NCBI GenBank assembly: GCA_006844605.1
Contig: SPJN01000004.1
Span: forward strand, 78,635 to 142,634
Length of the DNA stretch: 64,000 nucleotides
Origin: Hyphomicrobiales bacterium
GTDB lineage: Bacteria > Pseudomonadota > Alphaproteobacteria > SPJN01
Direction: 5' to 3'
A program made the position numbers and the translations under genes. Below are positions 11,278 through 39,564 of the stretch, one piece after another. The notes below the pieces were generated by a model. It was not told the DNA's origin. It ran no database searches and was given only the letters and a program-made list of their open reading frames with translations. Every line of letters begins with the position of its first letter. Position 1 is the stretch's first letter.

Positions 11278-11352
11278 GGTCCCTTCGTCTATCGGTTAGG
11301 ACGCCAGGTTTTCAACCTGGAAAGAGGGGTTCGATTCCCCTAGGGACTACCA
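11278..11352 (+). tRNA. tRNA-Glu (anticodon UUC)
   Basis: Cloverleaf read by eye: anticodon stem CCAGG/CCTGG with loop TTTTCAA, T-loop GGTTCGATTCC, 3' CCA encoded. Confidence 0.8.
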
Positions 11353-11422: not shown

Positions 11423-12157
11423 TTATGCCCAACCGCCGGCATAGGGCAGCACATGACCGGTAATGAAGTCTGATTCAGGCCCTGCCAAAAAGGCGACAAC
11501 CTCGCCGGCCTCTTCAGGTTTGGACAGGCGGCGCAGAGGAATGCGGCTTGTAATCCGTTCATAGACTTTCGGGTCGTTCAAAAGATCGTCCGGGAAGTAG
11601 GTGGGGCTTTCCACGAAATTGGCTGCCATCGCATTAACGGTGATATTGTGCTTGCCCAATTCCAGCGCCATCGTGCGCGTCATCGCGTTTGTTGCCCCCC
11701 GTGCGGTGGCATAGACGCTGTAATTGGGAATGCCCTGCAAGGGCGCAGCGGATGATAACAGCACAATTTTGCCATAGCCGCGTTCTTTTAGATGGGGCAC
11801 AGCGGCATTGATCATGGCGAAGGGGCGCACGGTCAACCGTTCCAACGCCTCGGTCAGGATTTTTGGACTGGTCTCGCCCAGCGGGCTGGGGTCGGCAGGG
11901 TGTGAATCATTGCAGATCAGGCAGGTCAAATGCCCGGCACGGTCAACAACAGCGTCGATCAATTCCTGTGGTTGGGCGGGGGCAAGGGCAACTGCGCCTG
12001 CAACCTCATCTTCAAACGCGGCGCGGGCTGCGTCATCAGTGAAGCTGTCATCAACGGCGAAAACTTGCCACCCGCGCGACAGGAGCGAGCAGCTACCCGG
12101 TTTACCGATAAAGTGAACGGCATCTGTTATCAGCGCGACGGATTGTGTGTCAGTCAT
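11423..12157 (-). CDS. Atypical SDR-family oxidoreductase
   Basis: Rossmann-like N-terminus, NYSVYATARGA active-site region (Y-x3-R variant); 4-nt overlap with the upstream sufU-like gene. Confidence 0.55.
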   Translation of the reverse strand: MTDTQSVALITDAVHFIGKPGSCSLLSRGWQVFAVDDSFTDDAARAAFEDEVAGAVALAPAQPQELIDAVVDRAGHLTCLICNDSHPADPSPLGETSPKILTEALERLTVRPFAMINAAVPHLKERGYGKIVLLSSAAPLQGIPNYSVYATARGATNAMTRTMALELGKHNITVNAMAANFVESPTYFPDDLLNDPKVYERITSRIPLRRLSKPEEAGEVVAFLAGPESDFITGHVLPYAGGWA

Positions 12158-12603
12158 GATGAATTCCCTGTTTTGGCTTGTGCGTCTTTGACGGCCTGTG
12201 TCAGTGCTTCAAACGGCATCAGCACGCAGGCGTGCCGTGCGGTGTGATCGGTCACTGCCGCGAATATGCCAAACCCCTTGGCCTGTGTGGGCAGTGTGCC
12301 GCTGCCCTGTTCAAGGACCTGTGTGACGGCCTGATGCGTTTCAGTGATCAGGGTGGCTGTCGCCCCCTCAAGCGTGCTGCCGATCAGACCCGCACTGGCC
12401 TGACACAGCACACATGCCTCAGTTTCATGGGTATAGGCGCTGAGTGTGTTGTCGGGCGCAAGTGTGATGTCGATTGTGATCTTGTCACCGCACAGGGGAT
12501 TATTCACCGTGGCACTGCCGTCGGGCCGGGGTAGGCGGCCTGCGTGGCTGGCGTCTGCGGCAGCGCGCAGCAAGTCCCTTTGATAAAGGTCCAGTGAAGA
12601 CAT
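12154..12603 (-). CDS. NifU/IscU/SufU-like Fe-S cluster scaffold protein
   Basis: NNPLCGDKITIDI ... EACVLCQAS conserved-cysteine pattern of U-type scaffolds; immediately downstream of sufS. Confidence 0.6.
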   Translation of the reverse strand: MSSLDLYQRDLLRAAADASHAGRLPRPDGSATVNNPLCGDKITIDITLAPDNTLSAYTHETEACVLCQASAGLIGSTLEGATATLITETHQAVTQVLEQGSGTLPTQAKGFGIFAAVTDHTARHACVLMPFEALTQAVKDAQAKTGNSS

Positions 12604-13859
12604 TAGGTTCCCTTTAACAGGTTAATGGCATCTTTGATGGCATTGATAGCGGCGTCCATATCATCGGGCGTGTTGTATCCGGCGATGGAGGCGCGGGTGG
12701 AGGCCAACAGGCCGAAATGCCCCATCAATGGCTGGGCGCAGTGGTGCCCGCCGCGCATGGCAACGCCACTGCGGTCCGCCAATTGGCAAATGTCATGCGG
12801 GTGGCATCCGGTAATGGCAAAGCTGACAAGGGGTGCCCGGTCGCGGCTGAAGTCGGCACCGCCCAATATAGTGGTGTCGAGCGGTGGCTGCGCGGCCAGT
12901 GTTGCGGCCAGTGTTGCGGCAAGCGTGACTTCGTGGGCGCGAATGGCCCGATGGTCCAACCCGGTCAGAAACCCAACCGCCGCGCCAAAACCAATTGCCT
13001 GTGTGATGGGGGGTGTGCCTGCCTCAAACCTAGTGGGGGGCTGTGCAAAACCGGTACCATCAAAACTGACATTTGTGATCATCTCGCCACCACCCAGCAG
13101 CGGCGGCATATTTTCCATCAAATCACTACGGCCCCAAAACATGCCAACCCCTGTGGGGCCGAACATTTTGTGGGCGGAGCATGCATAGAAATCTATCGGC
13201 AGGTCCGGCAGGGCTGTTTCAAACAGCGGCCAGTGACAGGCTGACTGCGCCCCATCAACAATGATGGCGGCGTTGGGTGCCTTGGCCCGGATCATGCTGC
13301 CGATTTTGTTCAGGTCTACTTCCCAGCCCGTGACATTGGAAATATGGCTTAACGCCACAATGCGCACCTTGTCCGTCAGTTGGGCGGCAAGGGCATCTTC
13401 GTCAATTTGCCCCAAGGGGGTCAGGGCAATGGGCGTGATGGTGGCACCCTTGGCAGCGGCATGGATTTGCCACGAAACAATGTTGGCGTGGTGATTATCT
13501 GCCGCCACCAGCACCTCATCCCCCGTTTGCAGGCCATCAGACAGGCCATAGGCAATGATATTCAGCGCCTGGGTTGTGCCACTTGTCAGAACAATCTCAG
13601 CCCGTGGGGTGCCGAAATAGGCGGCAAGGGTATCTCTTGCCGCTTCAAAGGCCTGTGTGGCCTGTTCGGCCCAATAATGAACTGACCGATGGACATTGGC
13701 CCTTAGGCGTGTGTCATGGTCCGCCATTGCAGCAATGACGGGGGCAGCAACCAGCGTGCTGGCACCGCTGTCCAGATAATGAAAGTCCCGACCCTCGTCA
13801 CGCATGGCGGCGAAGGCGGGGAAGTGGTTACGAAAGGCAAGCGGATCGAATGATGTCAT
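12603..13859 (-). CDS. sufS: Cysteine desulfurase, SufS subfamily (class V aminotransferase)
   Basis: HYLDSGASTL..., PLP-lysine motif SAHKMFGPTGVG, catalytic cysteine RGGHHCAQPL. Contains an in-frame 12-bp tandem repeat (ATLAATLAA). Confidence 0.85.
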   Translation of the reverse strand: MTSFDPLAFRNHFPAFAAMRDEGRDFHYLDSGASTLVAAPVIAAMADHDTRLRANVHRSVHYWAEQATQAFEAARDTLAAYFGTPRAEIVLTSGTTQALNIIAYGLSDGLQTGDEVLVAADNHHANIVSWQIHAAAKGATITPIALTPLGQIDEDALAAQLTDKVRIVALSHISNVTGWEVDLNKIGSMIRAKAPNAAIIVDGAQSACHWPLFETALPDLPIDFYACSAHKMFGPTGVGMFWGRSDLMENMPPLLGGGEMITNVSFDGTGFAQPPTRFEAGTPPITQAIGFGAAVGFLTGLDHRAIRAHEVTLAATLAATLAAQPPLDTTILGGADFSRDRAPLVSFAITGCHPHDICQLADRSGVAMRGGHHCAQPLMGHFGLLASTRASIAGYNTPDDMDAAINAIKDAINLLKGT

Positions 13860-13898: not shown

Positions 13899-15614
13899 TT
13901 AGAGATAGAGCAGCAATATAACAGCAAGTCCAATCATTACCCATAGCACCATATTCCCAACGGCAATGGATCGACCCATCGTGCCGGATGGTCCGTGATG
14001 GCGCGCCGCCAGTGCGCGGATATTGTCGACCCATTCGCGGATTAGGCCCCATATGCCGCCCGACAGATGTGTCACGGCCTTGCCCATTTCTTTCAGCATG
14101 GATGGTGCTAAGCGCCGATACAGCCAATCAGTATCAAGATTGACTGACGGAATTTCCGGCGGATAAAGCCCGGTACGCACCAACACCACAAAGGCCAGCA
14201 CAGCAAACATCAGCAGCTGCATCTGGGTGATGATATGGCCGGGTGTATAGGGCTCATAATCCATGGCATGGGGCAGGATGGCGTACAAATATTCGGGCCA
14301 TACACCGATGCCGATACAAAGCGCGGCGGCGATACCCATGGCGGCCAACATGTTCCACGGCGCTTCCTTGGGGCGTTTGCCGCTGTCATGGGCGAAGAAG
14401 CTGAAATAGGGGATCTTGATGCCCGAATGTTCCAGCACACCGGCGCTGGCGAATAACAGCACCGTCCAGGCAAGCCACATATGTTCTTGCGCGAGGGCTG
14501 CCAAGATCAGTGACTTTGAAATAAAGCCTGAGAAAAACGGGAAGGCCGAAATCGACATGGCACCGATGATGGTGAAAACGGTCGTCCACGGCATTGATTT
14601 ATATAACCCGCCCAACTCCGTCGCCTTGGTTGTGCCGACACGGTGCAACACCGCGCCCATCCCCATAAACAGCAATGCCTTATAAAGGATATGGCTGAAT
14701 GCGTGAGCCGCCGTGCCGTTCAGGGCAAGGGCGGAACCGACGCCAACACCCACGACCATAAAGCCCAGCTGGTTATTCAGTGAATATGCCAGCACCCTGC
14801 GCAGATCATTTTCAATCACAGCGAAAAAGACCGGGAAGGCGGTCATCGTTGCGCCGATGGGGATCAAAATATCCAAACCCGCATAACCGCGCGCTAATGA
14901 ATAAACCGCCAGCTTTGTTGTGAAGGCTGACAATATGACTGTGCCCGTCGGTGTGGCCTGTGGATAGGCGTCCTGCAACCAATTGTGCAGGAAGGGGAAG
15001 GCACATTTGATGCCAAAGGCAAAGAAAATCAAGAACGTCCCGGCGGTAAAGTCCGCCATGGTTGTGACGCCGAAATGATCAAACGCAATGCTGCCGGTTT
15101 CTGCTTTATGCATGACAAGTCCGGCCAGCAACAACACGCCGGAGCCGACTTGCACAATCAAATAACGAATGCCGGTTTTGTAAGCGATGTCAGTGCCGCG
15201 CGCCCAAATCAGGAAGACGGAGGCAATCGCCGTCAGTTCCCAAAAAATGAACAGCGTCATCAGATCGCCCGCAAACACCGCACCAACGCCTGCGCCCGCA
15301 TAGATCAGGGCGGCAACGTGCTGCATCGTGTCGGACGCAGTGTCCTTCAAGTGCAGGGCATAAAGAATGCCAAGGAAGGCGGCGATGTGAAAGATCAGCC
15401 CGAAAACAAAGCTGAGCTGATCGAGGCGATAGGTTTCAAGCACCATCCCCATCATCTCATAGTCACCATAGGTGCCGTGGGGCGTGTTCAACAGGTGCAT
15501 AACACCGAACACAGGCAGCAACAGCATATAGATTTTGCGTACAGGGCCACGCAATAGGGGTACCAACACGGCCCCCAAAATCAGGATCAGGCCGGGGTTA
15601 AGCTCACTCAGCAT
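13899..15614 (-). CDS. Antiporter-like subunit, NuoL/MrpA N-terminal-domain-like (PF00361-type), without a fused MrpB-like domain
   Basis: 571 aa, about 16 TM segments; FIFWELTAIASVFLI and LYKALLFMGMGAV motifs of the proton-pumping NuoL/M/N / MrpA/D family. Last gene of the Mrp-like operon. Confidence 0.7.
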   Translation of the reverse strand: MLSELNPGLILILGAVLVPLLRGPVRKIYMLLLPVFGVMHLLNTPHGTYGDYEMMGMVLETYRLDQLSFVFGLIFHIAAFLGILYALHLKDTASDTMQHVAALIYAGAGVGAVFAGDLMTLFIFWELTAIASVFLIWARGTDIAYKTGIRYLIVQVGSGVLLLAGLVMHKAETGSIAFDHFGVTTMADFTAGTFLIFFAFGIKCAFPFLHNWLQDAYPQATPTGTVILSAFTTKLAVYSLARGYAGLDILIPIGATMTAFPVFFAVIENDLRRVLAYSLNNQLGFMVVGVGVGSALALNGTAAHAFSHILYKALLFMGMGAVLHRVGTTKATELGGLYKSMPWTTVFTIIGAMSISAFPFFSGFISKSLILAALAQEHMWLAWTVLLFASAGVLEHSGIKIPYFSFFAHDSGKRPKEAPWNMLAAMGIAAALCIGIGVWPEYLYAILPHAMDYEPYTPGHIITQMQLLMFAVLAFVVLVRTGLYPPEIPSVNLDTDWLYRRLAPSMLKEMGKAVTHLSGGIWGLIREWVDNIRALAARHHGPSGTMGRSIAVGNMVLWVMIGLAVILLLYL

Positions 15615-15900
15615 CTTGGGCCTCCTCCTGATCGTCGTAATAGTCTTCAGGGCGCATGATCAGCTTGCGCAATTGCGCACCTGCCAGGACCACAAAGAAA
15701 AAGGCGGCAAAGCCGAACAGACCGTAAAAGGCCGGTATTTCTTCAGCCGAAAAATGCGGATGCTTGTGATAAAAGAAATCCGCAGCACCAAAGCCAACGC
15801 AGATCAGCACGGTCAGCAGGATCAGCAGGCGGTGATTTTCCACTCGCTCAAACCAGCCAAGCTCTTGATCGTCTTGAGTATGATTGTGATTGTCAGACAT
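15604..15900 (-). CDS. Small two-TM membrane protein with acidic tails, embedded in the Mrp-like operon
   Basis: 98 aa; two hydrophobic helices (LLILLTVLICVGFGAADFF, FYGLFGFAAFFFVVLAGA); translationally coupled (11-nt overlaps) to flanking antiporter-like genes. Confidence 0.4.
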   Translation of the reverse strand: MSDNHNHTQDDQELGWFERVENHRLLILLTVLICVGFGAADFFYHKHPHFSAEEIPAFYGLFGFAAFFFVVLAGAQLRKLIMRPEDYYDDQEEAQDAE

Positions 15901-15911
15901 CAGTGGTGCCT

Positions 15912-17396
15912 CTAATTCAAAATCGGGGCTATCAGGCCTTCAACCGCGTCAACGGCGAAGAACATGACAAAACACAGGAACGCGGTGAAGCATAGCGGTG
16001 CCAACACCATAAATGGTGCCTCTTTCACGCCATCCCAGCTAAACGGGGCAGGGGTGTCTTCACCATCGGGTTTCAGGAAGAAGCCGCGCACAGTAATCGG
16101 CAGCAGATAGGCGATATTCAATAATGATGAGATGATCAGCACCGCAATCAACAGCGGTTGCCCCGCATCAACGGCACCTTCCATCAAAACGAATTTGGGC
16201 CATGCCCCGCCGAACGGTGGCAGGCCGATAATTGACAGCGCGCCGATAGTATAGGCGATAAAGCTTAGGGGCATTTTGCGTCCCAAGCCATTCAACTGTG
16301 AAACTTCGGTCTTGTGATGGGCGACATAAATCGCGCCCGCGAAATAGAACAGGGTGATTTTGCCAACCGCATGCATGGCGATTTGCAACGATCCACCCAT
16401 AAATCCCGCAGCAGTTGCCAATGATAGACCAAACACGACATAGGCCAGTTGACTGATGGTTGAATAGGCCAACCGCGCTTTCAAATTGTCTTTGGTCAGC
16501 GCAATAATCGATGCCGTCACCAGTGTGAAGGCAGAAACCGCCTGCAACCAGAAAGTCAGGTCAGCGTCTGCCAGATAATCAATGCCGAAAATATAAATGC
16601 CGATTTTCAACACGCTGAACACGCCGGCTTTCACAACCGCAACGGCGTGCAAAACTGATGAAACAGGGGTCGGTGCCACCATTGCTGAGGGTAGCCATTT
16701 ATGGAATGGCATCAGCGCAGCCTTGCCGATGCCGAACATAAACAGGGCCAACAGGATTGTTGCTGTCGTGGGGCTGACATGATCTGCCAAGATGCCACCG
16801 GCGGTAAAGTCGGTGGTGCCGGTCAACATATAGGTCGCGATAATGGCGGGTAGCAACAACCCGATAGAGGTTGTCAGCAACACACCCAAATAGATGCGCG
16901 CACCCTTTTTGGCTTCCTCTGTTTCGCGATGGGCAACCAGTGGATAGGTGGACAGGGTCAACACTTCATAAAAGATAAACAGTGTGAACAGATTGCCTGC
17001 ATAGGCCATGCCCAGTGCGGCACCGATTGAAATCGGGAAGCACATGAAAAAGCGGGTGTGATTAACCTCGCCGGTATTGCGCATATAGCCGATGGCATAG
17101 ATTGAATTTACAATCCATAGCCCGCTGGCAATCGTTGCAAACAACATACCCAGCGGTTCGATCACGAATTTCAGCGGCATTCCCGGCAGAACTTCAAAGA
17201 AGCTGACCTCAGGGCGGGCACCAGCTGCCACCTGCGGCAATAGCCACAATGTAACGGCAAACAGGCTGATGGCTGTCAGCAGGGTGACAGTCTCGCGCTG
17301 GTTGGGACGATCACCGGACATGCCGATCAGGATTGTACCGACCACAGGAATGATCAGCGACAGGGCAATGGCTAAATCAAAACTCATACTAATCAT
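15912..17396 (-). CDS. MrpD/NuoM-like antiporter subunit (paralogue 2)
   Basis: 494 aa polytopic; LFIFYEVLTLSTYPLV and conserved-lysine region HKWLPSAMVAPTPVSSVLHAVAVVKAG typical of the PF00361 family. Confidence 0.75.
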   Translation of the reverse strand: MISMSFDLAIALSLIIPVVGTILIGMSGDRPNQRETVTLLTAISLFAVTLWLLPQVAAGARPEVSFFEVLPGMPLKFVIEPLGMLFATIASGLWIVNSIYAIGYMRNTGEVNHTRFFMCFPISIGAALGMAYAGNLFTLFIFYEVLTLSTYPLVAHRETEEAKKGARIYLGVLLTTSIGLLLPAIIATYMLTGTTDFTAGGILADHVSPTTATILLALFMFGIGKAALMPFHKWLPSAMVAPTPVSSVLHAVAVVKAGVFSVLKIGIYIFGIDYLADADLTFWLQAVSAFTLVTASIIALTKDNLKARLAYSTISQLAYVVFGLSLATAAGFMGGSLQIAMHAVGKITLFYFAGAIYVAHHKTEVSQLNGLGRKMPLSFIAYTIGALSIIGLPPFGGAWPKFVLMEGAVDAGQPLLIAVLIISSLLNIAYLLPITVRGFFLKPDGEDTPAPFSWDGVKEAPFMVLAPLCFTAFLCFVMFFAVDAVEGLIAPILN

Positions 17397-19009
17397 CAGT
17401 TGGCCCCTCCCGTCAGACCCAGCAAGCCACGGGCTGCTGTTTCCGCAAGATTGACAGTTGTCGTGGCGTTAAGGCCAAACCAGAAATTGGCCAGCACCAG
17501 CGCCCATGTGGGTATCAGAAGCAATAGCGGGGCTTCGCCCTTTTGCACGCCTTCAGGGGCGGGTCTTAAATAGGCCACCTCAAACACGCGCCACATATAA
17601 ACGGCCGCCATCAGGGATGTGATCAACAAGATTGCGATCAGCCAATACCACTCACGCTCAAACGCCGCGTTCAACAAATACCATTTTGATATAAAGCCGA
17701 CAGTTGTGGGCACGCCAACAAGGCTTAACCCCCCGCCAACAAAGGCCGCCATTGTCCACGGCATGAGCTTGCCTGCGCCGCGCATTTTATCCAGCGTAAC
17801 GCCGCCAAGTTTCCACATCACAGCACCAAGGGCAAAGAACAAGGCCCCCTTCATCAGCGCGTGATTGAACATGTGCAGCATGGTGGCGGTCAGGCCGGTC
17901 AGGCTCATCAGTCCAAGACCGACAAGCATATAGCCGATTTGCGCGACAGAGCTGAAGGCCAGAATGCGTTTGGCATTCACCTGCCAAATCGCGACCAGTG
18001 ATCCGGCAATGATGCCGATCAGGCCAAGGGGCAGCAGCACCTTGCCGAACAATTGTGCCTCGACCGCGAAATCAGCCCCAAACACGGTGAAGATAAAGCG
18101 GATCAGCGCATAGACGGCAACCTTGGTCGCGGTCGCGGCCAGGAAGCCCGTCACAACGCTTGGCGCATAGGTGTAGGCATTGGGCAGCCAGAAATGCAGC
18201 GGGAACATCGCCAGTTTGGTCGCCAAACCGATCGTGATGAAGCCGAAGGCGACCCACAATGTGCCGGAGCCCATCAGGTCAGGCAGGCGCTGGGCCAAAT
18301 CAGCCATATTCAACGTGCCGGTCATCATATAGGCAAGGCCCAGACCAATGACATAGAAGGTCGCGCCGACCGTACCCAAAATCAGGTAATTATAGGCGGC
18401 ATTCAGCGCGCGGCGATCTTGCTTGGCACCCATTGCCACCAAGGCATAGGTGGAGAGGGAGGAAATTTCGAGGAAGACAAACAGGTTAAATGCGTCGCCC
18501 GTAATCGTCACACCCAATAGACCAGAGAAGCACAACAGGAACGCCGTATAGAATAGCGGCTGTTCGGTCATGCCCAGCTCTTTGTCGACACTTGGGCGCG
18601 CATAAATGGCGGCACATGTCCCAATCGCCGCGACGATCAGTAGAACAAGGGCGTTTGCAGCATCAACCCGCAGCTCAATCCCCAATGGTGGGGCCCAATT
18701 GCCAAGGGCATAGCTGATGACGCTGCCATCCAGCACTTGGGTTGTCAGAACCACAGCGATCAAAAGCGATACACTCGTCCCGACCATAGCCAGCAACCAG
18801 CTTAAGTTCCGGTTGTTCAACAAGGTGATCAGCGGTGCCAATGTTAAGGGCACCAAAACCTGCAGGGCAGGCAGATTGTTGCGGATGATGTCCAGCAGGC
18901 CGGGCGCTTCGTGATGTGTCGCGCCATGTGTTCCTACATGTGTTCCGGCAGCAGCGGTCACTATATGGCCCGCCTCTGCGGCGGCCAAAATAATCTCAGG
19001 AGATGCCAT
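17396..19009 (-). CDS. MrpD/NuoN-like antiporter subunit (paralogue 1) with a His/Gly/Thr-rich N-terminal extension
   Basis: 537 aa; FNLFVFLEISSLSTYALVA, WLPNAYTYAPSVVTGF motifs; N-terminus AGHIVTAAAGTHVGTHGATHHEAP. Confidence 0.75.
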   Translation of the reverse strand: MASPEIILAAAEAGHIVTAAAGTHVGTHGATHHEAPGLLDIIRNNLPALQVLVPLTLAPLITLLNNRNLSWLLAMVGTSVSLLIAVVLTTQVLDGSVISYALGNWAPPLGIELRVDAANALVLLIVAAIGTCAAIYARPSVDKELGMTEQPLFYTAFLLCFSGLLGVTITGDAFNLFVFLEISSLSTYALVAMGAKQDRRALNAAYNYLILGTVGATFYVIGLGLAYMMTGTLNMADLAQRLPDLMGSGTLWVAFGFITIGLATKLAMFPLHFWLPNAYTYAPSVVTGFLAATATKVAVYALIRFIFTVFGADFAVEAQLFGKVLLPLGLIGIIAGSLVAIWQVNAKRILAFSSVAQIGYMLVGLGLMSLTGLTATMLHMFNHALMKGALFFALGAVMWKLGGVTLDKMRGAGKLMPWTMAAFVGGGLSLVGVPTTVGFISKWYLLNAAFEREWYWLIAILLITSLMAAVYMWRVFEVAYLRPAPEGVQKGEAPLLLLIPTWALVLANFWFGLNATTTVNLAETAARGLLGLTGGAN

Positions 19010-19452
19010 CAGTGTGCCCCTCCGCGATTATCATCTGCGCCAAGGATGTCGGCGGCAAGCTGTGCTTCTTCTGCTTCGGTCTTGTTATCGGCTTCTTCAA
19101 GCTCATCTTCTTCAATCGTGCCATAGACGGCCTTGATGCGCAGGACCAATGCCAGCGCCAATGCCGTGGTTGCGATGCCGACCACAATGGCGGTCAGGAT
19201 CAACACATGGGGAAGGGGGTTTGAGAACGGGCGGGTCAGCCCTTCTTCCAAGATCGGCGCTGTGCCGCCATCAACCTTGCCCAACGAGATGTAGAGCATG
19301 AAGACAGAAGTTTGGAAGATGTTCAGGCCAACAATCTTTTTAATCAGATTGCCGCGTGCAATCACGGCATAAAGCCCGACCATCATCAGCACGATGATGA
19401 TCCAGTAATTGTAATGGCCCCAATTCAGGTTTGATAACAGGTCGGAGATCAT
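19009..19452 (-). CDS. mrpC: Mrp subunit C (NuoK-like)
   Basis: NLIKKIVGLNIFQTSVFMLYISLG...NPLPHVLILTAIVVGIATTALALALV; acidic C-terminal tail. Confidence 0.8.
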   Translation of the reverse strand: MISDLLSNLNWGHYNYWIIIVLMMVGLYAVIARGNLIKKIVGLNIFQTSVFMLYISLGKVDGGTAPILEEGLTRPFSNPLPHVLILTAIVVGIATTALALALVLRIKAVYGTIEEDELEEADNKTEAEEAQLAADILGADDNRGGAH

Positions 19453-19892
19453 CAGTCGTCATCTCCTTCCTTGGGCAGGCGGCCATGTTCGGCGAAATAA
19501 TTGAAAATTGTAATCATGGTCGATGCCACTGTGATCCCGACGCCGCCCTCGACTAACAAAATGCCGTAATGCTGGCCATGTATGGGGTCATGCGCGAGGA
19601 CGCTGTAATCAAGGAATGGTGCGCCTAAAAACAGGCTCCACACGCCGACGCCGATATAAAGCAACCAGCCGACAGCGGTAAAGCCGCGAACAATGTGGGG
19701 CGGGGCAACGTCATTGGCGGCATCAAGGCCGAAGATCAGCGCATAAAGCACAAAGGCAGCAGCAAAGATCACGCCGGCCTGAAAGCCACCACCGGGCCCG
19801 TAGTCACCGTGGAACTGAACATAAAGCGCAAACAGCAAAATCGGCGGGATCAGAATTTTCGTGATCACGCGAAGAATCAGATGATGGTTCAT
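19452..19892 (-). CDS. mrpB: Mrp subunit B (MnhB domain)
   Basis: HGDYGPGGGFQAGVIFAAAF MnhB signature. Confidence 0.8.
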   Translation of the reverse strand: MNHHLILRVITKILIPPILLFALYVQFHGDYGPGGGFQAGVIFAAAFVLYALIFGLDAANDVAPPHIVRGFTAVGWLLYIGVGVWSLFLGAPFLDYSVLAHDPIHGQHYGILLVEGGVGITVASTMITIFNYFAEHGRLPKEGDDD

Positions 19893-20482
19893 GCTGTTTC
19901 TCCCGTCTTGTCGGTTGCAGCTTTTTTCTTGCGGCGTGAACCTAAAAGCAACATCACGCCGATACCGGCGGTGAAAATCACGCCGGTTTCGCCCAAGGTG
20001 TCAAAACTACGATAGGACGCAAGGACAGAGGTAACGATATTGGGCACGTCGATGTCTTCTTCACTGCCCTTAATATAGTCGGGCGCAACATGCAGGTTCG
20101 CAGGTGCATTCGGATCCCCGAAATCAGGCATGTCAGCGGTGCCATACAGCAACGCGCCACCGACAACCAGTGTCACCAAAAGCGGTACGATATTGCTGCT
20201 GCTGGAAACCTTGCGCCGCCACCCGGTGACGGACAATGTTGCCAGCATCAAGACGGTTGAAATACCTGCGCCGACCGATGCTTCGGTAAAGGCAACGTCA
20301 ACCGCGTCCAGCACCACAAACAACACAGCCGATAGTAGCGAGTAGGCACCGGTCAACATGACCACGGCAAACAGATTGGTCAGGCGCAGAACCGCAATGG
20401 CGGTCACTGCCAACAGGACGAATAACAATATCGTCACCGCATGTTCCATAAACGAGGTGGAGATAAAGTCAGTCATGATCAA
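19889..20482 (-). CDS. DUF4040-like membrane protein (MrpA C-terminal-domain / MbhD-like), free-standing
   Basis: 197 aa, 3-4 TM; sits where the MrpA C-terminal domain / MbhD sits in archaeal-type clusters, directly upstream of mrpB. Assignment is by position and topology, not a firm motif. Confidence 0.5.
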   Translation of the reverse strand: MIMTDFISTSFMEHAVTILLFVLLAVTAIAVLRLTNLFAVVMLTGAYSLLSAVLFVVLDAVDVAFTEASVGAGISTVLMLATLSVTGWRRKVSSSSNIVPLLVTLVVGGALLYGTADMPDFGDPNAPANLHVAPDYIKGSEEDIDVPNIVTSVLASYRSFDTLGETGVIFTAGIGVMLLLGSRRKKKAATDKTGETA

Positions 20483-20862
20483 TCCTCCGCCTTTTCGCCG
20501 GGTTCAACAGCCGGTAGGGAAAAAGCTGCCGCGCTTTGTTTGCTGACATGGTTGGCTTTCAATTGCGGCTTGCGCCCGGCATAAAGCGATGCCTGCGCCA
20601 GCGCGTGACTGGCGACGGGGCTGGTCATCCACATGAAGGCCAAAATCAACAACAACTTGAAACTGATTAGGCTAAATCCAGCCTGGATGCCCAAACCCGC
20701 CAATATCAAAAAAGTGCCCAGCGTATCTGTCACGCCCGCTGCATGAAGTCGTGCATAGACATCCGGCAGGCGCAAAACGCCAATGCCGCCTACCAAAAGG
20801 AAGAAGGAACCGCCAAGCAGCAGCGCCCAACTGGCGTAGTTTGCAATCTCAGCAACGGTCAT
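20479..20862 (-). CDS. mrpG: Mrp subunit G
   Basis: LRLPDVYARLHAAGVTDTLG...MWMTSPVASHALA typical MnhG/PhaG. Confidence 0.8.
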   Translation of the reverse strand: MTVAEIANYASWALLLGGSFFLLVGGIGVLRLPDVYARLHAAGVTDTLGTFLILAGLGIQAGFSLISFKLLLILAFMWMTSPVASHALAQASLYAGRKPQLKANHVSKQSAAAFSLPAVEPGEKAED

Positions 20863-21158
20863 TGCGCGCCCTCCTGATCCTGAAGTTCTGCGGTTGAGGC
20901 ACCAAGCGTGCGGTAGCGGAAGAACTTAAGAATGGCGATGGTGCCGATGAAGTTGATCAGGGCATAAACAATCGCGATGTCCAAAAATTCCGGGCGGCCT
21001 GTCAAAAAGCCGAACACCGCAATCAGCAGCACAGTTTTGGTGCCGAACATATTCACCGCCAACACGCGGTCATATACGGTCGGGCCGGACAGCAGCCGGA
21101 CAAGCGCCATTAACATTGTCACCATCAGCGCGATGGCGGTGGCAGCAAACATGGTCAT
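20859..21158 (-). CDS. mrpF: Mrp subunit F
   Basis: 99 aa; VYDRVLAVNMFGT...LDIAIVYALINFIGTIA typical MnhF. Confidence 0.8.
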   Translation of the reverse strand: MTMFAATAIALMVTMLMALVRLLSGPTVYDRVLAVNMFGTKTVLLIAVFGFLTGRPEFLDIAIVYALINFIGTIAILKFFRYRTLGASTAELQDQEGAQ

Positions 21159-21661
21159 GCGTCACCTCTGGCAATTTTGGCATTTTTGCGTTCATGTTCC
21201 GCCGCTGAAACCTTTCGGTCCATCGTGCCTTCTTCAAGGTCTTTTGCGGCATCTTCAGATAGGGCGTGGACCAAAAACTCGTCCCCCTCAATGGCAACGG
21301 TTACAGTGCCGGGGGTTAAGGTGATGGAATTGGCGTAAAGCACCTTGCCCAAATCTGAATGCTGGCTTGATTTCAGCGTGAACAGCGTGGGGGAGATGTT
21401 CAGGGACGGGGCCAATATACGCTTGGTCACGTCGATATTGGCTTTGACGATTTCGATAAACAGCCATGGCCAATAGATCAGAATCGAAAACCCGATTTCA
21501 TAAGGCGTGCCTTCGATATCGACGATGCCTTTACGCAGCGCAATATAGACAACGCCCAAGACGGATGCTGCCCCGAATGATAAAAGTAATGTACTGAAAT
21601 GGCCGGACATGCCGATCCATAATAGTGACAAGACGACAGTGAGCGTGAAGGCGCGTGCCAA
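21155..21661 (-). CDS. mrpE: Mrp subunit E
   Basis: [13 protein letters not shown] signature of MnhE; TTG start at 21661 (alternative ATG at 21610); first gene of the operon. Confidence 0.75.
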
Positions 21662-23663: not shown

Positions 23664-23770
23664 CATCATTGTTCTGCCCACGCGGCAGATTGCCCGCCTT
23701 TTTAGGGGATTGATCACCTTGCCCACCCCGGTGCAAAGGTGTAAGCCAACAGCCAACCGTTGAATAAATG

Positions 23771-23847
23771 CGGGGCGTAGCTCAGCCTGGTAGAGCGCCT
23801 GCTTTGGGAGCAGGAAGTCGTCAGTTCGAATCTGGCCGCCCCGACCA
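23771..23847 (+). tRNA. tRNA-Pro (anticodon UGG)
   Basis: CGGGGCGTAGCTCAGCCTGGTAGAGC...anticodon loop TTTGGGA...GGTTCGAATC...CGCCCCGACCA; CCA encoded. Confidence 0.85.
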
Positions 23848-23908
23848 TTTCATGAGACAATGCGGCTGTGACTGTCTATTGTTAGCCGTTGATCATCGAA
23901 GGGCGTTT

Positions 23909-24208
23909 ACTATGACCAAGGCTCGGATTTATAAACCTGCGAAAACTGCCATGCAGTCAGGGCGCGCCAAAACCCAAAATTGGGTGTTGGAATTTGAACC
24001 TGCTGAACAAAAGCAGCTGGACCCGTTGATGGGCTGGACAGGTTCGGGTGACATGAATGGGCAGGTGCGTTTGCGCTTTGCCGACAAGGCCGCTGCCATC
24101 AGCTATGCTGAAAAGCACAATATCGCCCATGATGTAATTGAGCCGCAGGTCAGAACGCCCAAGCGTAAATCCTATGCGGATAATTTCCGGCCAACCCTGC
24201 CAGAGTAA
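23909..24208 (+). CDS. NDUFS4-like small protein (ETC complex I subunit conserved region, PF04800-like)
   Basis: 99 aa from the ATG at 23909: PLMGWTGSGDMNGQVRLRFADKAAAISYAEKHNI matches the alphaproteobacterial NDUFS4-related family. The track ORF's N-terminal extension overlaps tRNA-Pro and was rejected. Confidence 0.6.
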   Translation, partial: TMTKARIYKPAKTAMQSGRAKTQNWVLEFEPAEQKQLDPLMGWTGSGDMNGQVRLRFADKAAAISYAEKHNIAHDVIEPQVRTPKRKSYADNFRPTLPE

Positions 24209-24245: not shown

Positions 24246-24322
<77 letters not shown>

Positions 24323-38367: not shown

Positions 38368-39267
38368 ATGCTGCCAAATCTGATCATTCCCGGTGCCCCG
38401 AAAAGCGGCACCTCTACCCTGTATCGTTGGTTGAGCGATCATCCGGCGGTGCAAGGCGCTCGTTTGAAAGAGGTTGAGTTCTTTATCGACCTCGGTTGGC
38501 ACAGCCAGAATGAGGAAGCGAATGCCCATTCTGCCAACCTCGATGCCTATGAACGGTTTTTTGATGGGTGGACGGGCACGGGTGAACCCCGCCTGATCGT
38601 GGAATCAACACCTGCCTATATGTATCAACAAACAGCCTTGCGTGATTTGCCGGACCTACCCAGCAAGCCGCATCTGTTGTTTTTGGTGCGGGAGCCTGCC
38701 GCCCAAATAAAATCCACGTTCGATTATTTCCAAAATAATTGGCAACACATCCCCGCCGATTGGGCCTTTGCCGACTATGTTGCGGCATTGGAAGCGGGCC
38801 GCGCAGACTTTTCCCAAAATGAGCTGGTGGTCAATGCGCTGGACTATGCACGGTATGACAAATGGTTGGATAAGTGGCGCGATGCTGTGGGCACAGAACG
38901 GATGACGGTGTTGGGCATGGAACGTTTTTTCAGTGACGCCCGGTCCGGCATGGTGTCACTTTGTGACCAATTCGGGCTCGATCCCGCCTTTTATGACAGC
39001 TATGACTTCCCACGGGAAAACGAAACCTATCGGGTGAAATCGCAGGCGCTGCAATCGCTGAATGTGCGGGTGCGGGCGCTGCTGCCGCGCAATAATGCAC
39101 TGTATAACGGCTTGCGGACGGTGTATCGCAAGGTGAACACCGGGTCAAAACAAGCCATTGGGGATGACGCTGACGGGGCAGCAATGGACCGTTTGAAGGC
39201 GCGCTATGCAGCCTTGCCCGCGACATTGGCGCAGACCTATGGGCTTGATCTAAGCCACTGGCGCTGA
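38368..39267 (+). CDS. Sulfotransferase-family protein (PAPS-dependent type)
   Basis: 5'-PSB P-loop GAPKSGTSTL near the N-terminus and a 3'-PB-like LFLVREPAAQIKS motif. Confidence 0.6.
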   Translation: MLPNLIIPGAPKSGTSTLYRWLSDHPAVQGARLKEVEFFIDLGWHSQNEEANAHSANLDAYERFFDGWTGTGEPRLIVESTPAYMYQQTALRDLPDLPSKPHLLFLVREPAAQIKSTFDYFQNNWQHIPADWAFADYVAALEAGRADFSQNELVVNALDYARYDKWLDKWRDAVGTERMTVLGMERFFSDARSGMVSLCDQFGLDPAFYDSYDFPRENETYRVKSQALQSLNVRVRALLPRNNALYNGLRTVYRKVNTGSKQAIGDDADGAAMDRLKARYAALPATLAQTYGLDLSHWR

Positions 39268-39294
39268 TACATCGACTGCACCACAGGCTGGTGT

Positions 39295-39445
39295 AGGGAA
39301 TACGGTGCGCTCTGAATTTAGGGCAATTCCGCAACTGTCCCCGCAACTGTAATCGGTAAGTGGGCTGCCAAACCACTGTCTTGCAAAAGATGGGAAGGGG
39401 CCGCACCACGGTTGAGCCGAAAGTCAGGAAACCTTGCCGCCTGTC
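39295..39445 (+). ncRNA. Cobalamin (B12) riboswitch
   Basis: GGTGCGCTC...AGGGCAA...CCGCAACTGTAA...GGGAAGGGGCCGCACCACGG...AAGTCAGGAAACCTTGCCGCC: the B12-box AGTCAGGAAACCTTGCC fits rAGYCMGgAgaCCkGCc with one insertion; directly upstream of a TonB-dependent receptor and ABC importer. Confidence 0.55.
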
Positions 39446-39564
39446 CGTCCTCATGGCCGTCCGGGTTGAGCCTGCCATGTCGGAACTTTCCGAAGCGACG
39501 GATGAACCGCACATACCCAGTGGGTGTGTTGCTAATGTCGTTTTTGCGGAAAGAGGTGCTTTCC

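Follow-up and report, generated by a model that had tools for sequence, protein, structure and literature searches.

A ten-gene Mrp-type operon

Here, we describe an operon of ten genes that together carry all subunit domains of the Mrp (CPA3) cation/proton antiporters. It lies within a 64,000-nucleotide stretch of DNA (the window; GenBank assembly GCA_006844605.1, contig SPJN01000004.1, positions 78,635 to 142,634) from a bacterium assigned to the Hyphomicrobiales. The genes, labelled E, F, G, Bn, B, C, D1, D2, x, and L in operon order (Table 1), are co-directional and, in a mechanical list of open reading frames (ORFs), occupy the interval from 21661 to 13899 of the minus strand exactly. These limits and the assignment of genes to subunits had been put forward in an earlier note written from the letters of the DNA, and both were confirmed by the ORF list and by Pfam. 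The overlaps of 4 to 11 nt given there were close but not exact; from E to D2, successive genes overlap by 4, 4, 4, 4, 1, 1, and 1 nt, D2 and x are separated by an 11-nt spacer, and x and L overlap by 11 nt, giving overlaps of 1 to 11 nt at eight of nine junctions. Shine-Dalgarno-like motifs (GAGG and AGGAGG) stand at the right distance ahead of both x and L.

Pfam searches (PF01899, PF04066, PF03334, PF13244, PF04039, PF00420, and PF00361) placed nine of the ten products above the gathering score, with PF00361 present in three and x without a match. The cut-offs of four NCBIfam equivalog models were passed as well (NF009310 by L, NF009159 by Bn, NF009162 by B, and NF005621 by C). A look-up of L by exact sequence matched no record; in a 95%-identical relative (L082), used in its place, an independent gene caller gave these ten genes, with the same Pfam content and neighbours. 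Chance was ruled out as an explanation for the operon because orthologues of every gene keep their order in dozens of genomes. Horizontal acquisition was also considered and set aside, as base composition gave no signal beyond strand and membrane-protein skew.

Table 1. Features of the window and of related loci (positions are those of the window unless another sequence is named; TM, transmembrane helix; SDR, short-chain dehydrogenase/reductase)
Feature	Position	Strand	Description
E (mrpE)	21155-21661	minus	168 aa, TTG start; PF01899 (MNHE), E=1.3e-27; operon position 1 in related loci
F (mrpF)	20859-21158	minus	99 aa; PF04066 (MrpF_PhaF), E=2.9e-21; 4-nt overlap with mrpE
G (mrpG)	20479-20862	minus	127 aa; PF03334 (PhaG_MnhG_YufB), E=3.4e-27; TIGR01300, 88 bits (cut-off, 63)
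Bn (free-standing MrpA C-terminal domain)	19889-20482	minus	197 aa; "DUF4040", MbhD+MbhE fusion
B (mrpB, MbhF equivalent)	19452-19892	minus	146 aa, GPGGGFQAG; PF04039 (MnhB), E=4.7e-30; NF009162, 189 bits (cut-off, 120)
C (mrpC, NuoK-like)	19009-19452	minus	147 aa; PF00420 (Oxidored_q2), E=2.8e-21; NF005621, 140.5 bits (cut-off, 126)
D1 (MrpD/NuoN-type antiporter-like subunit)	17396-19009	minus	537 aa; PF00361 (Proton_antipo_M), 206 bits
D2 (second antiporter-like subunit)	15912-17396	minus	494 aa; PF00361, 175 bits; sub-threshold PF00662 (Proton_antipo_N)
x (two-helix membrane protein)	15604-15900	minus	98 aa; no named family; motifs D-x-x-Y-H-K-H and R-P-E-D-Y-Y-D
L (predicted MrpA TM1-16/NuoL-like subunit with lateral helix)	13899-15614	minus	571 aa; PF00361, 146 bits
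SufS-like cysteine desulfurase, SufU/NifU-like scaffold, SDR	11423-13859	minus	after L, 39-nt gap
tRNA-Glu(TTC)	11278-11352	plus	
tRNA-Pro	23771-23847	plus	
NDUFS4-like ORF	23768-24208	plus	PF04800
tRNA-Arg(TCT)	24246-24322	plus	
Cobalamin riboswitch	39245-39455	plus	RF00174
Rhizobial cassette	L081, 9487-16678		Sinorhizobium meliloti LMB1 plasmid pB
Rhizobial L-like subunit	L081, 12001-13761		
Rhizobial cassette, pSymA	NC_003037.1, 849059-850600		
Free-standing D2-x-L	L034, 8206-11698		

The earlier note held that MrpA is split here into a NuoL-like and an MrpB-like half and that one extra antiporter-like paralogue has been added, and the searches agree on both counts. The MrpB-like half is Bn, which scored 57 bits against PF13244 (MbhD), 26.3 bits against PF20501 (MbhE; just under the cut-off of 27), and 195 bits against NF009159 (cut-off, 141) and aligned to residues ~600 to 800 of the MrpA models (NCBIfam); by these matches it is the equivalent of TM17 to TM21 of MrpA. 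The NuoL-like half is L, which matched NF009310 (PRK12668, "Na(+)/H(+) antiporter subunit D") with 718.3 bits (cut-off, 564), its residues 2 to 570 covering positions 4 to 581 of the 584-position model. An AlphaFold2 model of L (19 homologues; predicted local distance difference test [pLDDT], 72) has a 14-helix core, TM15 (residues 458 to 480), a lateral helix (496 to 540), and a final helix (551 to 570), and a Foldseek search of the PDB with this model returned MrpA chains 9a6h_A, 7qru_A, and 6z16_A as top matches, with more than 600 columns aligned. The succession of TM15, lateral helix (HL), and TM16 is the arrangement of MrpA, NuoL, and MbsH' (PMC7684303), and L is equivalent to helices 1 to 16 of MrpA, with its lateral helix and terminal anchor helix.

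The other two PF00361 proteins were told apart by their best PDB sequence matches and by a neighbour-joining tree. D1 matched MbsH (6u8y_H, 214 bits), MrpD (7qru_D, 203 bits), and MbhH (6cfw_H, 183 bits) ahead of MrpA chains (81 to 108 bits), clustered with NuoN in the tree, and is by these comparisons the MrpD orthologue. D2, a 14-helix core with no C-terminal extension, leans by score towards NuoL, NdhF, and MrpA (NdhF, 129 bits; NuoL, 115; MrpA, 112; MrpD, 93 to 103; NuoM/N, 61 to 78), and its orthologues make a separate clade; it is the extra paralogue. Channel residues are present in all three proteins, namely, E181, K265, H272, K296, H383, K387, and K442 in D1; E144, K225, H232, K256, H342, K346, and K401 in D2; and E126, K203, H210, K234, H308, K312, and K367 in L. 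The chain Glu(TM5)-Lys(TM7)-Lys(TM8)-His/Lys(TM11)-Lys(TM12) is conserved in D1, D2, and L across 23 to 24 of 24 sampled orthologous operons, and because these residues are kept, none of the three looks degenerate.

Taken together, the ten genes probably encode one self-contained, ten-subunit Mrp (CPA3) cation/proton antiporter of the loosely defined group 3, a reading drawn by analogy with characterized relatives. Group 3 has been described both as clusters of irregular order (PMC5703873, Ito et al. 2017) and as clusters that lack mrpA and hold only mrpD-like genes, at times in several copies (PMC8415708, Haja et al. 2021). The operon has such an irregular order and no full-length MrpA, its largest PF00361 protein (571 aa) being without a fused MrpB-like domain, and the label "group-3-like" chosen in the earlier note is apt. 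Groups 1 and 2, by contrast, have the order mrpABCDEFG and an MrpA of ~800 to 950 aa that ends in the MrpB-like domain(s); here, a gene of its own, six genes upstream of L, encodes the MrpA C-terminal domain as a 197-aa protein. To our knowledge, all solved Mrp structures belong to groups 1 and 2.

Those complexes (Anoxybacillus flavithermus, 6z16; Bacillus pseudofirmus, 7qru; Dietzia, 7d3u) share with the operon the same seven domain families and the channel residues, and their MrpA is the best fold match of L; they differ in gene order, the operon being EFG-first, with MrpA split and D2 and x added. The closest counterpart for the first seven genes is the stand-alone group-3 Mrp of Pyrococcus furiosus (mrpEFGBB'CD, PF1147-53), in which they stand in identical order, with a protein fusing MbhD and MbhE (its "MrpB") followed by an MbhF/MnhB-type protein, a NuoK-like MrpC, and MrpD (PMC8415708). 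Neither operon has a full-length mrpA or a redox module. The P. furiosus operon is archaeal, however, and lacks D2, x, and L and hence any equivalent of MrpA TM1 to TM16 with its lateral helix; its deletion affects Na+-coupled pH homeostasis (PMC8415708). Group-3 clusters of cyanobacteria (Aphanothece halophytica mrpCD1D2EFGAB; Synechocystis slr2006-2013) are likewise bacterial and encode multiple MrpD-like proteins along with small A/B proteins, but have another gene order and only two D-type genes. The Aphanothece cluster gives Na+/H+ antiport in Escherichia coli (summarised in PMC5703873).

Distribution and flanking genes

A search with L returned at least 8,000 scored candidates at an E value of ≤1e-20. 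The best 120 were nearly all full length (~563 aa) and mostly 62 to 66% identical, and those with a name were called "Na(+)/H(+) antiporter subunit D" of Alpha- and Gammaproteobacteria; L itself is identical to a protein of a metagenome-assembled genome (MAG) labelled "Alphaproteobacteria bacterium". When GTDB representatives, one genome for each species, were scanned with a pattern, at least 600 stretches were picked out and 598 of them were confirmed, giving at least 598 genomes with an L homologue. Eighty loci were fetched, and all ten window proteins were searched against each by tblastn. The exact order E-F-G-Bn-B-C-D1-D2-x-L was recovered in 61 loci, with three more short only of a detectable x; 13 were contigs too short for the whole operon, and in the remaining three (L033, L034, and L038), only the D2/L end is present. 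By record title, 54 loci are from Alpha-, 13 from Gamma-, and 4 from Betaproteobacteria, 5 are from other phyla (Gemmatimonadota, Latescibacterota, Planctomycetaceae, and one Oceanobacillus), and 4 are identified as Proteobacteria/Pseudomonadota only. Alphaproteobacterial carriers include Rhodospirillales, Hyphomicrobiaceae, Parvibaculum, Kiloniellaceae, Thalassobaculum, and Nisaea, and marine, sediment, or soda-lake samples were the source of several related MAGs (all by record title).

The suggestion that such an arrangement would be unusual in an alphaproteobacterium is contradicted by these counts; the exact order is the standard form, and the best matches of L are mostly alphaproteobacterial. 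The locus is an ordinary copy of a common operon type that annotation pipelines have already named. Published descriptions include "MrpEFGBBCDD" for the Solemya velum symbiont (PMC4287430), "Mnh/MrpEFGBCD1D2D3" for Verruconatronum (PMC13274419), and, in a haloalkalitolerant Nitrospira, a pair of extra NuoM/NuoL-like genes placed after a group 3 Mrp (PMC7784846). These are genome annotations; our literature search found no experiments on the ten-gene form, whether functional or structural, antiport assays included. Among marine and saline Proteobacteria, and in other phyla too, this Mrp of ten subunits, three of them antiporter-like, is abundant. Its interest sits with the family rather than with this locus, namely, with its ten-subunit architecture, its conserved small protein (x), and a gene cassette found also in unusual variants of complex I.

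The reading of the operon as a self-contained complex follows from its flanks, because no redox family is found among the conserved flanking genes. When 719 flanking ORFs from 64 loci were clustered, the families with the widest spread were those of generic ABC ATPases, in 16 loci, and DUF192, in 12; neither NuoH, NuoB, NuoD, nor any other redox family was shared among these flanks, and no NuoB/C/D/H/I-like genes were found near the operon in the window or in the gene calls of L082. This bears out the proposal, already made in the earlier note, that peripheral-arm genes are lacking and that the complex is not a hydrogenase. It also bears on the alternative that the ten products make up the membrane arm of a redox-driven complex, of the type of the membrane-bound hydrogenase (MBH), the sulfane sulfur reductase bound to the membrane (MBS), or complex I, to which a peripheral electron-transfer module encoded elsewhere would dock. 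The gene order does match that of the mbh and mbs operons in their membrane part, MbsH and MbsH' are among the best PDB sequence matches of D1 and L, and D2, x, and L recur in a true complex I operon of rhizobia (described below). Yet the arms of MBH, MBS, and complex I are always co-encoded with their anchor (PMC7684303), and the NuoH/MbhM-like anchor, together with NuoB/C/D/I, is absent from the surroundings of the operon in the window and from the 64 related loci, where no flanking gene family is conserved across loci. We consider a redox-driven arm very improbable.

The likeness to MBS can be set out subunit by subunit. The membrane arm of P. furiosus MBS (6u8y) has an A/B/C-D-E-G-H-H' type order and a last pump with TM15, HL, and TM16 (PMC7684303), and its MbsH' and MbsH are the best PDB sequence matches of L and D1, respectively. 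In contrast to the operon, with its three pumps and no redox module, MBS has two pump subunits and a redox module (MbsM plus J/K/L/N), and a profile search of the PDB gave no x-like subunit in it.

Two sets of carriers deserve a separate record. In two Latescibacterota loci (L052 and L065), two more PF00361-like genes lie upstream and one lies downstream of the ten-gene operon; these genomes may encode even larger assemblies or a second cluster next door. A complete ten-gene operon, with an L that is 60% identical, is also present in a record with a Firmicute label (L073, titled Oceanobacillus sp. HTM 045); the other carriers are nearly all Proteobacteria, plus a few other Gram-negative phyla, and contamination, mislabelling, or horizontal transfer are possible sources of this mismatch.

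The D2-x-L cassette

The product of x gave only chance-level matches to Pfam, NCBIfam, and the PDB, whether searched as a single sequence or as a profile. Of the 80 related loci, ~70 have a detectable gene for it after D2 and before L, and the consensus reads W-L-D-x-P-x-N-V, then a first TM ending in A-D-x-x-Y-H-K-H-x-H-F-x-x-E, a second TM, and L-R-x-x-L-M-R-P-E-D-Y-Y-D. A word-indexed search recovered nine proteins only, and an exhaustive search with a hidden Markov model (HMM) was needed to reveal the family; among 1.84 billion cluster representatives (50% identity), 2,134 clusters matched at an E value of ≤1e-3, and 984 matched at ≤1e-10. All of the top 150 matches are free-standing proteins of 73 to 167 aa. 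On this sequence evidence, x appears to be a real and widespread small subunit that domain databases do not cover. Its AlphaFold2 model is a hairpin of two helices (residues 20 to 45 and 55 to 81) of low confidence (pLDDT, 62), and the protein most likely packs against D2 and L.

The same three genes occur outside Mrp operons. A tblastn search of plasmids with L found 98 megaplasmids of Sinorhizobium, Rhizobium, and Ensifer, including pSymA of S. meliloti 1021. The order of the rhizobial locus is nuoJ, nuoK, a 487-aa "MrpD family" protein, an 84-aa hypothetical protein, a 586-aa "Na+/H+ antiporter subunit D", nuoM, nuoN, and nuoA-G. Identity to D2 is 47% for the 487-aa protein, identity to L is 48% for the 586-aa protein, and the hypothetical protein between them is a homologue of x (hhalign probability, 98.4%) that ends in R-R-E-D-Y-Y-D. 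In complex I variants of this kind, two MrpD-like subunits stand in for NuoL, and the pair recurs in Complex_I_3, the five-pump enzyme of "Ca. Manganitrophaceae" (PMC9040806), described in a paper whose main text makes no mention of a small x-like gene. The rhizobial green complex I (nuo2) and Complex_I_3 share the D2-x-L cassette with the operon. In rhizobia, an NADH dehydrogenase operon has it after nuoJK and before nuoMN; in the window, it ends an Mrp operon, following mrpC and D1 and preceding sufS, with no adjacent nuo genes. The rhizobial L-like subunit carries the changes K203N and H210N in TM7, at positions that are invariant in the 24 L proteins sampled from Mrp operons, and to judge from these substitutions, its first half-channel may be altered in complex I. 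In the neighbour-joining tree, the rhizobial D2-like and L-like copies are sister to the respective Mrp-operon clades, a placement compatible with transfer in either direction.

Two further loci (L034 and L038, from Gammaproteobacteria and "Proteobacteria" MAGs) hold a free-standing D2-x-L, with no Mrp genes in their long upstream flanks; the flanking genes, on the other strand, are TRAP-transporter genes upstream and ion-channel and mechanosensitive-channel genes downstream. D2-x-L behaves as a portable three-gene cassette, with which complex I of rhizobia and manganese oxidisers becomes an enzyme of four or five pumps. We hold it quite possible, while stopping short of calling it likely, that x is an obligatory structural subunit of this "pump-extension" cassette, which would be plugged onto different connecting modules, either the seven-subunit Mrp or complex I in the place of NuoL. 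If so, the ten-gene Mrp would be the natural reservoir of the MrpD-like pair found in the rhizobial and Manganitrophus complex I variants, and it would offer a simple, redox-free system for the effect of added antiporter-like subunits on H+/cation stoichiometry.

The mobility of the cassette raises the alternative that the operon encodes two machines, a seven-subunit Mrp of the archaeal type (E, F, G, Bn, B, C, and D1) and a separate D2-x-L that works alone or attaches elsewhere. Besides the free-standing copies among unrelated genes in L034 and L038, it would agree with the sufficiency of the seven-gene set in P. furiosus (PMC8415708), and a clamp on D2 by the modelled lateral helix of L could give the cassette a self-contained structure. 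However, D1 and D2 overlap by 1 nt, the ten genes are contiguous in ~60 loci of several phyla, and no antiporter-like subunit is known to work in the absence of a connecting NuoK/J-like module. Two machines in one operon seem quite improbable to us, and a single ten-subunit Mrp is retained in what follows.

Proposed complex and surrounding features

By analogy with the solved structures of Mrp, MBH, and MBS, MrpE, MrpF, MrpG, and MrpB would form the cation module, probably for Na+, Bn and MrpC would provide the connecting proton path, and D1, D2, and L would stand as a row of three antiporter-like proton channels. Exchange would be driven by the proton-motive force, with protons entering by three or four channels and Na+ (or K+) being expelled. 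The extra channel would lift the H+-per-cation ratio above that of a seven-subunit Mrp, which would suit saline or alkaline conditions, and the marine, sediment, and soda-lake origin of related MAGs fits such a role at high salt or pH. As a carrier of the cassette shared with complex I, the ten-gene Mrp could be a tractable model for the tuning of pump number in the complex I superfamily.

The order of the three antiporter-like subunits in the membrane would be either L-D2-D1 or D2-L-D1. A lateral helix needs ~26 residues per extra pump subunit (PMC9040806); that of L is ~45 residues (~67 Å) in the model and would therefore span about one neighbouring subunit. In MrpA, NuoL, and MbsH', the adjacent pump subunit is clamped by the amphipathic lateral helix and the terminal anchor helix. 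The model, which is of moderate confidence, suggests that L clamps D2 as MrpA clamps MrpD, with x close by. The length of the TM15-TM16 linker was also tried as a count of the subunits spanned and was rejected as unreliable; the length of the modelled helix, a weak guide, was used in its place.

Several points weigh against the single ten-subunit antiporter. Antiport, ion specificity, and stoichiometry are assigned to the ten-gene type by analogy. With D2-x-L alone in the two gammaproteobacterial loci and also inside a complex I operon, its assembly with the other seven proteins is something that we infer. The lateral helix, as modelled, reaches about one subunit, and one of the two pump-pump interfaces would be left unclamped.

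The choice of ion is a further such point, since Mrp relatives carry other ions. A single Mrp-type complex might have a job other than Na+ extrusion, whether K+/H+ exchange, Ca2+/H+ exchange, or the use of a Na+ gradient to expel protons. Specificity varies within Mrp, as in Pha1 of S. meliloti and in the Ca2+/H+ exchange of Thermomicrobium (PMC5703873), inward Na+ and outward H+ transport at low pH has been proposed for the P. furiosus Mrp (PMC8415708), and the group-3 cluster of cyanobacteria is believed to supply the energy for Na+/HCO3- uptake (PMC4390856). The marine or saline habitat of carriers favours a Na+ role without proving it, and nothing in the sequence discriminates among these ions. 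We regard another job as unlikely and Na+ extrusion by the ten-subunit Mrp as the preferred reading.

Downstream of L, SufS, SufU, and SDR genes follow on the same strand; no terminator-like site was seen in the gap between L and SufS, and the three genes may be co-transcribed with the operon. The same three neighbours are present in L082 and not in most other loci. RecJ is encoded further downstream. Upstream, on the other strand, are genes for a cold-shock-domain protein, a DUF192 protein, a thioesterase, and an NDUFS4-like protein. The NDUFS4-like ORF overlaps tRNA-Pro at its 5' end, and its true start must therefore lie further downstream (the protein has 98 aa in L082); its product is of the complex I accessory type, and nothing evident links it to the Mrp operon ~2 kb away. 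The tRNA-Glu and tRNA-Arg genes lie a few kilobases to either side, outside the immediate neighbour genes, and a cobalamin riboswitch elsewhere in the window was identified by a full-length match of 80 bits.

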